NCBI GenBank assembly: GCA_964360815.1
Contig: CAYHYA010000003.1
Location: 1 to 63,433, forward strand
Length of the DNA: 63,433 nucleotides
Source: an uncultured Candidatus Saccharibacteria bacterium
GTDB taxonomy: Bacteria > Patescibacteriota > Minisyncoccia > Phycocordibacterales > JACOZG01
Direction of reading: 5' to 3'
In this document: piece by piece, positions 54,264-56,271 of the stretch
How positions within the stretch are numbered: position 1 is the stretch's first letter
How the letters are laid out: each line of letters opens with the position of its first letter
Notes under the pieces: generated by a model
What the model was told of the DNA's origin: nothing
Seen by the model: only the letters and a program-made list of their open reading frames with translations
The model's database searches: none
Made by a program: the position numbers and the translations under genes

Positions 54264-54313
54264 GTCTACATATTATCAAATATATGCTTACGCTCAAACG
54301 AGTATTTAATTTT

Positions 54314-54348
54314 TAGAAAAAAGAAAGGGCGACCGCTACTGGTCGCCC
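54314..54348 (-). terminator. intrinsic terminator (minus strand)
   Basis: Hairpin gggcgacc-gctact-ggtcgccc (8 bp). On the minus strand it is followed by CTTTCTTTTTTCT. It ends the ~390-nt noncoding stretch downstream of the zinc-ribbon gene. Confidence 0.7.
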
Positions 54349-54581
54349 GATGAGATCATTCTTCGCAAAGATCCATGGTCTCAATTTGGAAATCGAGTTC
54401 ACCAAGGATCGGGAGGAAAAAAGGGTTTAAGTTTCCTAAAAATCTGCGCGGCCTTTCGGCTTAACTGTTCGCAATCTCTTGCCATCGAATGTCTCCTTTC
54501 TGTTTCTTACTCTATCAAAAAATTTTCCTGTGGGGAAGTACGACTTCCATCACCTAATGAGTTCGTATCTAGTTTTTGTTG

Positions 54582-54631
54582 CTCCCTGTCTTGGACAAGT
54601 TTAGAACCAGTGATTGGCGGAAGGATTGGGG
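54582..54631. repeat. 48-50-nt repeat element, copy A
   Basis: ctccctgtcttggacaagtttagaaccagtgattggcggaaggattgggga. It matches copy B at 56149-56198 with 4 mismatches over ~48 nt. Confidence 0.8.
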
Positions 54632-54733
54632 AGGTTGGGTTGTTTGGGGTAAAGAAAACCGCCCCGTAACACTCTTTGTGTTATTGGGGGGCGGTGAAGG
54701 AGAGAAAGTTTTCTCAACCCTCTCCCGGTAAGT

Positions 54734-54973
54734 TCAGGGTGCCTTCAACCTGGCACGGATTTGCCTTATGAGTGGCTTTGTGTCTATACCGGCCGCGGCC
54801 AATTCTTTGCGAACGTCCTCGATCGGCATACAGGCAATGAGATCTGGATCCTCCTCGAGCCAATCGATAACTTTCTTAATCTGCTTTCTGGCGGCAATAC
54901 CAGCAGAGCAATCACACAAAACGGAGCGTTGTTTAATGTATCCACCGCCACAACACTTCTCACAATCTGGCAT
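54734..54973 (-). CDS. small Cys-rich zinc-ribbon-like protein
   Basis: Likely start MPDCEKCCGGGY ... CDC, with an SD GAGGAG about 8 nt upstream. 79 aa. The ORF is open to 55012. Confidence 0.5.
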   Translation of the reverse strand: MPDCEKCCGGGYIKQRSVLCDCSAGIAARKQIKKVIDWLEEDPDLIACMPIEDVRKELAAAGIDTKPLIRQIRARLKAP

Positions 54974-55108
54974 TATTTTTCTCCTCTGTTTATTGGGTTC
55001 TTGTCGGACCAAAGACCACCTTCAGACCCCCGTTCAGAGTAGCACTTTGTAGTGATAACGTCAATAAAATGGGTATATTTATGTGCCGGATTTACGAGAG
55101 TGCGCCGC

Positions 55109-55699
55109 TTAAATCTTCGGCTTTTTGGCTTGTTGAAATTGAACTAGGTCGATTTGAGAAAATATCCTAGAAACGGAAGACTCCTTGATCATACCGAACG
55201 ATGGCTGGCGGCGCTTGTCGTCTCCGTTTTTAGTTCCAAAACCAATATATTCTACCGTCTTCTTCTTGGCCTTGCGAATATATTTAATCGCCGGAATGAG
55301 ATCGGTGTCTGAACTAACCACGATCGCCGTATCATAAATATTGTCCACGGCACCGACCACTAAATCAACCGACAATTTCACATCCACGCCTTTTTCTCTA
55401 ATTGCTCCGCCGTCATACATTATTCGGCCAAATTTAATCTCAAAACCATCGGCCACTAAACCATTAAGGAAAGTTTGTTGACTTTTAACCATTTGTTCTC
55501 CTTTTGCCGAGCCGTCAAAGTTTTTGACTACACCAACATAATATCTTTTTGAAACAAGTTCTCTTTCTCCGACTAAGTGTTTGACCAGAGCAGAAAAATC
55601 AAACCGCATAGACTTTTCTGGTATTCCTATCTCTTTGAGTCTTCGGTAAGTATTGCCGCCGTCAAAATAGATCGCCACTTTCTCCTTTTTGCTCATTTT
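55109..55699 (-). CDS. NYN-domain (LabA-like, PIN-related) putative ribonuclease
   Basis: Likely start MSKKEKVAIYFDGGNTY. NYN motifs are present: VAIYFDGGN, GVDVKLSVDLV, IVVSSDTDLIPAIKYIRKAKKKTVEYIGFG. The ORF is open to 55777. Confidence 0.7.
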   Translation of the reverse strand, partial: KMSKKEKVAIYFDGGNTYRRLKEIGIPEKSMRFDFSALVKHLVGERELVSKRYYVGVVKNFDGSAKGEQMVKSQQTFLNGLVADGFEIKFGRIMYDGGAIREKGVDVKLSVDLVVGAVDNIYDTAIVVSSDTDLIPAIKYIRKAKKKTVEYIGFGTKNGDDKRRQPSFGMIKESSVSRIFSQIDLVQFQQAKKPKI

Positions 55700-56148
55700 T
55701 CCAATTCTAGCATAAAAACAAACCAACCCTGCCGGTGAAGGCAGAGTTGGTGGTGTTAGTGCCACTAGTATATACAAGCAGATGAAAAAAGCAAGAAGAT
55801 GTGGATAAAGACCACCCCCCCACTCTGCTACTCACCATATTTAGGAACAAAAAACTCCCCCGTGAGGGAAGTTCTTTGTGGGAGTAGCAAACTACTAGAG
55901 GATAAAAAGGATTTCGTCGCCTGTTTGGTTCCTCGTTCGCTTCCCAGCCCTCAATTATGCTTCCGTGGTGCGCGGCTGAACTCTTGGTGTGTCCTTAAAC
56001 CAGTGGTCACTTTTCACCGCTACCCTTGTCCTTGCGGACAATCCACCGCACAAGGCGGATGACGGACTTAATTCACGACCCCCGTTTCTGACCGAAGCCA
56101 GAAAACACCAACTCTCACTACTCCGGTTAGAGTATAGCAGAAATCAAA

Positions 56149-56198
56149 ACTCCCTGTCTTGGACAAGTTCAGAACCAGTGATTGGCGCAAGGTTTGGG
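56149..56198. repeat. 48-50-nt repeat element, copy B
   Basis: ctccctgtcttggacaagttcagaaccagtgattggcgcaaggtttgggaa. It matches copy A. Confidence 0.8.
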
Positions 56199-56240
56199 AA
56201 GAAATGGCACTATTAAATATAGTAGGTTTGGAGAAAGTGT

Positions 56241-56271
56241 AAAAAAAGACCGCTGGGCGAGCCAGGCGGTC
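56241..56271 (-). terminator. intrinsic terminator after acidic protein gene (minus strand)
   Basis: Near-palindromic hairpin gaccgctgggcgagccaggcggtc. On the minus strand it is followed by TTTTTTT (the complement of the A-run at 56241-56247). It sits about 27 nt after the stop codon at 56298. Confidence 0.7.

Follow-up and report, generated by a model that had tools for sequence, protein, structure and literature searches.

Mobile elements that depend on a large serine recombinase (LSR) recombine attP with attB to give attL and attR, carry the recombinase gene at an edge of the element, and use a short core. Among serine-integrase candidates, tRNA genes were the target in only 14 of 297 cases, a type of target ‘not reported previously’ (PMC7192596). 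Repeated integration leading to tandem arrays at tRNA genes is a known outcome, and in such Islander/TIGER-type arrays co-oriented att-derived fragments downstream of the tRNA separate the blocks of cargo, the newest island lying by the tRNA and the usual fragment being a second copy of the tRNA 3' end, produced by a tyrosine integrase (PMC7192596). The ‘suicidal’ SSV-type integrases of archaeal viruses and plasmids have their site within the integrase open reading frame (ORF), so that integration splits the gene, and the fragments at element ends accumulate as pseudogenes (PMC7253208). In integron attC arrays, co-oriented short sites stand between units of one to a few genes. We compare with these systems a locus from an uncultured Candidatus Saccharibacteria bacterium, contained in a 63,433-nt stretch (the window; contig CAYHYA010000003.1, assembly GCA_964360815.1), in which two direct copies of a short element, A and B, lie near a homolog of MVP and a gene for tRNA-Asn. 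These repeats are probably the severed 3' ends of LSR genes, marking the insertion of mobile islands by the tRNA-Asn gene, so that each would be an attL-type scar of one of two tandem islands. We put the probability of this reading, which is drawn from comparison of sequences, at roughly 0.8.

The two copies are:

54582-54633, plus strand: copy A, orphan LSR tail and putative P'-type half of an attL-like junction, starting at the family-wide boundary G|CTCC
56150-56242, plus strand: copy B, orphan LSR tail complete to the stop codon

Positions 54582-54633 and 56150-56201 are the same at 48 of 52 places, in direct orientation and with an offset of 1568 nt. With up to three mismatches allowed, no further copy of either half of the element was found in the rest of the window, and the expectation from shuffled sequence was 0.00 and 0.13 matches for the two halves. 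The pair is thus far beyond chance, as a preliminary description of the locus had held, and its statement that the ~300-nt bodies beside the copies have no similarity outside the repeat was also borne out by direct comparison. The family homology of copy B runs ~40 nt past the shared 52 nt, up to the stop at 56242, and its peptide, LPV-LDKFRTSDWRKVWEEMALLNIVGLEKV followed by that stop, fits the family pattern W-x-x-(I/V)-x-x-E-(L/M). The homology of copy A ends where the shared 52 nt end, only the part of the tail nearest the junction being kept; its peptide is LPVLDKFRTSDWRK, after which family homology is lost, and a 51-aa ORF running over the copy (54576-54731) is probably a chance extension.

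A scan of metagenome contigs with a degenerate pattern gave at least 120 stretches, and a profile built from these found at least 165 related copies in at least 124 loci, mostly on metagenome contigs of the Candidate Phyla Radiation (CPR; Patescibacteria). The same element gave zero matches in a scan of viral contigs. Its core, CCAAT-N5-GTTCTGAACTTGTCCAA, also occurs upstream of the NYN/LabA-like gene (NYN) in L011, L012 and L018, three relatives fetched via the NYN protein (loci are given here by L numbers). On the plus strand of the window the information content of the aligned copies shows three-nucleotide periodicity: codon position 2 carries the most, position 1 less and position 3 least, as far as about codon 22. 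Two Leu positions make use of all six Leu codons, one Ile position varies between ATT, ATA and ATC, and at another Glu and Asp alternate, giving the consensus peptide LPxLD(K/T)FRTx(D/N)WxxIxxELxxhxhh. Such codon-like variation places the element under constraint at the amino-acid level, on the strand opposite to every neighbouring gene of the repeats. The antisense frame (QSKVLNVSNRGS) was rejected: although it has wobble columns in common with the coding frame, early interruptions break it in some of the copies listed. Since the codon pattern explains the conservation, we dropped a further suggestion of the preliminary description, a shared protein-binding site, together with promoter readings; the candidates considered were an operator, a sigma-70 or sigma-54 promoter and a DnaA-box-like site (a GTTCnGAAC palindrome, CCAAT...CCAA), and promoter spacing was inconsistent. 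The onset of conservation is abrupt, at position -10/-11, G|CTCC.

The short tail peptides have no match in Pfam or NCBIfam, and a profile search of 5.8 billion proteins returned only 35 short hypothetical ORFs of 30-94 aa, almost all of them the sole member of their cluster. The source of the motif is seen in longer proteins. It forms the C-terminus of full proteins in L100 (592 aa) and L166 (516 aa), both of which have Resolvase and Recombinase domains by Pfam, with Zn_ribbon_recom in the L166 protein only, and in tblastn these two proteins match both window copies. In three of the 35 short ORFs (P0128, P0142 and P0148) and at several loci the motif is likewise continuous with a longer protein tail, the join reading ...EKRAILNYLLQN..KKLEF...SPFNLVLELADSPDW|LPLLDKFRT.... 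Because the motif ends full-length Resolvase/Recombinase proteins, the element is the last ~28 codons of an LSR gene.

At four loci the two parts of such a gene are found separated, at the ends of what appear to be complete elements:

L139:900-10400: complete element
L164:2050-11520: complete element
L113:20-9200: complete element
L103:1850-12250: complete element

In each of these the recombinase ORF aligns with the family only up to the residue before the tail; at TGG|CTCC it then passes into the antisense strand of a tRNA 3' terminus (tRNA-Asn-GTT at three loci, tRNA-Trp at the fourth). All four also have an orphan tail in the same orientation, 9.0-10.3 kb upstream, and joining the P arm of L139 to its own orphan tail restores a family-typical C-terminus. 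The short core GCTCC is the only sequence common to the junctions. The recombinase gene is thus at one edge of complete elements of 9-10 kb, which also share two conserved proteins of ~365-450 aa that have no Pfam match (one present in all four, the other in two), and whose cargo includes type III restriction-modification genes or a Bro-N protein.

The geometry relative to tRNA genes is uniform. At every one of the 14 loci with a copy and a nearby tRNA gene, the tRNA gene lies downstream of the copy and is encoded by the other strand; its identity is Asn in 10, Arg-TCT in three and Trp in one. Adjacent copies are also always co-oriented (41 of 41 pairs), and arrays contain up to six co-oriented copies within 9 kb, at spacings of 364-4678 bp. 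What lies between the copies and the tRNA varies: clustering of the genes neighbouring the copies gave no recurrent partner, many unrelated genes adjoining the element. Around NYN, L018 has the order tRNA-Asn, MVP, tail, NYN (MVP region L018:4781-7750); L011 and L012 have NYN and differing genes bracketed by two co-oriented tails; L003 has tRNA-Asn, a 73-aa LSR remnant, NYN and then a degenerate tail; and in L082 MVP adjoins NYN with a spacer of only 120 nt. In L084 and L085 tRNA-Asn adjoins NYN, with no MVP and no tail; all that stands between the two genes (L084:4003-4770, L085:330-1090) is a GIY-YIG-like ORF and a partial duplicate of the 3' half of tRNA-Asn. The NYN of these two loci is only 78% identical to that of the window, and the hot spot is occupied there by another, small insertion.

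These observations can be assembled into a model of small integrative elements of CPR bacteria. The attP site would lie inside the recombinase's own ORF, about 28 codons before the stop, and the target would be the very 3' terminus of a tRNA gene, in most cases tRNA-Asn(GTT). Integration would create an attR (P-O-B') at which the recombinase gene abuts the tRNA, its ORF ending a few codons into the antisense tRNA, and an attL (B-O-P') at which the last ~28 codons, now at the far end of the island, are joined to the DNA formerly downstream of the tRNA. Repeated integration at the same tRNA, with decay of the older elements, would then produce arrays of co-oriented orphan tails separated by cargo genes. 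The crossover chemistry and the order of events belong to this model, as do the loss of recombinase genes and a present lack of function of the tails. Since only the C-terminal ~28 residues would be exchanged, the integrated recombinase is probably still functional.

Applied to the window, the model concerns the following features:

60206-60279, minus strand: tRNA-Asn (GTT), putative integration target (B' side), convergent with the tails
57456-60002, minus strand: MVP homolog, with Pfam MVP_shoulder and Vault_3
56298-57200, minus strand: acidic protein of 300 aa, next to MVP
56298-60002, minus strand: putative cargo of the tRNA-proximal island (MVP homolog and acidic protein)
55109-55696, minus strand: NYN/LabA-like gene, between the tails
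54734-54973, minus strand: zinc-ribbon gene, between the tails
54734-55696, minus strand: protein-coding content of the distal segment (NYN and zinc-ribbon gene)

Along the plus strand the order is copy A, the zinc-ribbon gene, NYN, a 275-nt RNA gene, copy B, the acidic-protein gene, MVP and tRNA-Asn, all but the two copies being on the minus strand, and only 200 nt separate MVP from the tRNA. Copy B would be the distal junction of a proximal island that holds the MVP homolog and the acidic protein and has no recombinase, while copy A would hold the corresponding place in an older island or segment, the one with NYN and the zinc-ribbon gene. The MVP homolog, placed between tRNA-Asn and an island junction scar, thus appears to be horizontally mobile cargo. 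The preliminary description had offered, as an alternative to its main proposal, that the repeats are att-like boundaries of an inserted NYN/zinc-ribbon cassette. This comes close to what the comparative data indicate. L169 shares the acidic-protein gene with the window, and L018 lacks it.

The parents of the tails resemble other serine-integrase elements in their Resolvase, Recombinase and Zn_ribbon_recom domains, in the placing of the recombinase at the element edge and in the short core, but differ in using the 3' end of a tRNA as target, in having the putative attP within the recombinase coding sequence and in their CPR/Patescibacteria hosts. With the SSV-type integrases they share the deposition of gene fragments at element ends. 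However, the SSV-type enzymes are tyrosine recombinases of archaea whose gene is split into two inactive halves, whereas here the exchange would affect only the last ~28 codons, and since the parents are serine recombinases the likeness is one of mechanism and not of family. SSV-type integrases target tRNA genes, and to our knowledge an att site inside the enzyme's own ORF has been known only from these archaeal ‘suicidal’ tyrosine integrases. The arrays of tails correspond to tandem tRNA islands in their co-oriented fragments separating cargo downstream of the tRNA, but the fragment here is a piece of the recombinase gene. The family would therefore combine two traits that are unusual for serine integrases, a tRNA-gene target and an att site in its own ORF. 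Enzymes whose attP and attB can both be deduced are of practical interest for genome engineering, the elements bear on gene flow in the little-studied Patescibacteria, and the boundary G|CTCC followed by TTGGAYAMGTTYAGAAC can serve as an annotation marker for the limits of CPR islands.

A number of points weigh against the interpretation of the copies as island scars. A tblastn search of the window with the LSR proteins found the two tails only and no recombinase gene, and no recognisable P-arm remnant was found beside the window tRNA-Asn, which would require decayed or non-autonomous islands. Of four intact copies inspected by eye, only two (L165 and L166) suggested dyad symmetry around the breakpoint, and L100 and L140 did not. 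The tail resembles the antisense end of the tRNA significantly in the window alone (z = 3.6-3.7); averaged over 16 copies, z is 0.87. Some copies are only 364-1200 bp apart, and strict LSR chemistry, limited to attP x attB, alone explains neither tandem arrays nor such short spacings. NYN is a widely conserved gene, which makes it surprising as island cargo. Finally, the two tails flanking NYN in the window, in L011 and in L012 are in each case the closest relatives of each other, a relationship that repeated visits by one element lineage would explain, and that gene conversion or a cassette-type mechanism would explain just as well.

The last of these points leads to the alternative that survives best, in which the copies are still-active sites of a cassette system, served in trans by a serine recombinase and comparable to integron attC sites, with short cassettes, such as NYN plus another gene, being shuffled from one co-oriented site to another. 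It would account for the six co-oriented copies in 9 kb, whose spacings are too short for elements of 9-10 kb, and for the bracketing of NYN and variable genes by near-identical copies in three genomes. It is also favoured by L169, which is 99.85% identical to the window and diverges abruptly past the RNA gene. However, only the P' half is conserved and the left half-site is almost without information, unlike a site bound by a dimer; the window has no recombinase; and the basic unit is already explained by the complete elements, in which a single tail and the recombinase occupy opposite ends. The likeness to attC arrays in orientation and spacing by small gene units is offset by the lack of an IntI tyrosine recombinase and by sites that are constrained by coding in sequence and not by structure, with one half-site conserved. 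We consider this alternative unlikely.

A bolder scheme can be drawn. There may be a CPR serine-recombinase family that inserts at the 3' ends of tRNA-Asn genes (some at tRNA-Arg or tRNA-Trp), crosses over within its own ORF, and in doing so replaces ~28 conserved C-terminal residues by a few codons read antisense from the tRNA. Given its conservation at the amino-acid level, the tail might act as a built-in directionality switch, the full-length enzyme made from the circle integrating and the truncated enzyme excising or being silent. Orphan tails would then be landing pads for cassette-like arrays that move the MVP homolog and NYN between lineages. We offer this scheme as speculation that is more likely wrong than right.

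The island-scar interpretation takes the orphan tails as inherited fragments. If they were instead genes in their own right, they would encode micro-proteins of ~25-35 aa with the N-terminus (M)DKFRTxDWxxIxxEL, starting at the conserved TTG. Constraint at the amino-acid level is evident, the frame is open over the conserved ~22 codons in nearly all copies, and codon 0 is TTG in 119 of 135, far above the use of this codon at the other Leu positions of the motif. However, no Shine-Dalgarno signal was found ahead of the motif in the 135 copies, and an anti-Shine-Dalgarno-like GCTCCCC precedes the TTG. The frame from the TTG is open for only 10-53 codons, the ORFs reaching a stop only a few codons past the conserved part, as expected by chance. 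In 86 of the 135 copies there is no ATG, GTG or TTG between the upstream stop and the motif. Copy B itself has an in-frame TAG four codons upstream and no ATG or GTG start, its sole start-type codon being the TTG at 56159, before which no Shine-Dalgarno-like sequence was seen. The continuity of the sequence with full-length recombinase ORFs explains the codon pattern by inheritance, conservation of the TTG and CTC can be explained as recognition of a DNA half-site by the recombinase, and database ORF calls are limited to the 35 sporadic ones. Micro-proteins are thus an improbable explanation of the copies.

The weakest explanation, which was the main proposal of the preliminary description, made the element the shared 5' module of two paralogous minus-strand small RNAs (sRNAs) of 300-350 nt, possibly vault-RNA analogues of the MVP homolog; it drew on the non-coding stretch and terminator that follow each copy on the minus strand, on a sigma-70-like promoter just upstream of copy B (TTTACA-N16-TATATT, 56243-56216, minus strand) and on a region B that folds better than shuffled sequence (z = -3.3), but is refuted by variation in >135 copies that follows the codons of the opposite strand, by relatives in which the copies look like insertion scars around variably present cargo with no structural covariation, by the many unrelated genes beside the element, and by the properties of the two bodies given below. 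A minus-strand hairpin that we had ourselves at first drawn for the element from five sequences (CTTCCC...GGGAG with an inner CTTGTC/GACAGG stem) failed when applied to 146 instances: the outer stem was paired in 74%, against up to 72% in register-shifted controls, and the inner stem in 55%, against up to 65%, with all six pairs of the inner stem present in only four of the 146 copies.

Other elements of that description were accurate. The minus-strand surroundings are as it gave them, with a strong hairpin and T-run at 54348-54327, a weaker one at 55870-55855, and the terminator of the acidic-protein gene just before copy B; a further terminator follows the zinc-ribbon gene, upstream of copy A on the minus strand. 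Its expectation of sRNAs held for region B, in the form of a structured RNA gene with a promoter of its own, and not for region A. The features concerned are:

55846-56139, minus strand: candidate structured RNA gene of ~275 nt, with extended -10 TGCTATACT (56139-56131), probable start near 56124 and terminator 55870-55849
L206:1483-1795 (minus), L169:3689-3994 (plus) and L037:9790-9946 (plus): further occurrences of the RNA gene
54305-54581, minus strand: region A body, with a 28-aa ORF (54399-54485) and the strong terminator 54348-54327

The region B RNA would be initiated from an extended -10 of its own that lies downstream of the element. L206:1483-1767, in an unrelated context without the element, matches it at 89% identity, and a more divergent, partial copy in L037, also without the element, has its own TTTACA-N17-TATAAT promoter and changes that preserve the stems. 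The consensus fold has 86 predicted pairs, none of which is broken by substitutions and three of which are compensated on both sides; the compensatory changes keep the closing 5'/3' stem and several hairpins. An Rfam search of both regions at E <= 10 gave nothing meaningful, the best matches being to terminator hairpins only, and an Rfam scan of the whole window at gathering thresholds gave tRNAs and chance or terminator-only matches. RNase P, SRP, 6S and tmRNA were considered by eye as identities for the 275-nt RNA and are unsupported by Rfam or ARAGORN, and a scan of viral contigs for the RNA gave zero matches.

Conversely, the element is present at >120 loci without this RNA. The RNA body is absent from L018, which carries MVP, and a blastn search of the 3.5-kb L206 with the window MVP gene gave no match, the ORFs listed there being of at most 165 aa. 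The RNA therefore does not track MVP, and the vault-RNA-like link that had been suggested is not supported. The structured RNA gene of region B is itself well supported; it is independent of the repeat, not linked to MVP, unclassified and present in several CPR lineages. The tempting connection between a bacterial MVP homolog and vault-like RNAs is thereby removed, MVP appearing as cargo of a tRNA-Asn island in CPR bacteria, and the unclassified ~275-nt structured RNA becomes a separate lead.

Region A gives no sign of a structured RNA: its fold z-score is -1.65, and blastn at E <= 1e-3 found no homologs in the fetched loci. Its 28-aa minus-strand ORF, MARDCEQLSRKAAQIFRKLKPFFPPDPW, is preceded by a strong ribosome-binding site, AAAGGAGA. 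The region A body would be the flank beyond the outermost island, with the former downstream flank of the tRNA as its putative origin.

The remaining observations concern NYN and its upstream region. An exact look-up of the window NYN protein gave no record, and by its NYN homologs the organism belongs to the Patescibacteria/Paceibacteria, within the CPR. The 5' leader of NYN is strongly conserved over CPR lineages (upstream of NYN in L018, L081, L082, L084, L011 and L012). It consists of a terminator-like hairpin with a T-run behind it, and clear compensatory changes are seen (CACCAaC/GtTGGT, CACCAgC/GcTGGT, CACCAcC/GgTGGT). In the window the hairpin is at 55722-55751 (minus strand), with promoter elements TTGCTT (55794-55789) and TATACT (55772-55767), and its presence suggests attenuation or autoregulation. 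A DnaA-box-like sequence, TTATCCACA, lies just upstream of the NYN -35 (window 55808-55800, minus strand); it is exact in L018 and reads TATATCCACA, with one mismatch, in L012. The 5' end of the region B RNA (56126-56106) is also conserved in L206 and L037. Of its 21 positions 17, including an unbroken run of 10, are complementary to the leader hairpin's 5' arm (55752-55732; both on the minus strand), a match that may reflect regulation in trans or chance.

A tRNA gene in the same orientation (Asn, Ala, Glu or Met) often precedes NYN by a few hundred nt, as in L003, L015, L017, L019, L020, L038, L084 and others, NYN being at about position 8001 in loci with a full upstream flank. The pattern is a hint that NYN, too, is often carried along by tRNA-linked islands. 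In L169, the identity of 99.85% covers window positions 55844-59838, and the abrupt divergence right after the RNA terminator (L169:3994-4052) indicates a breakpoint of strain-level rearrangement.

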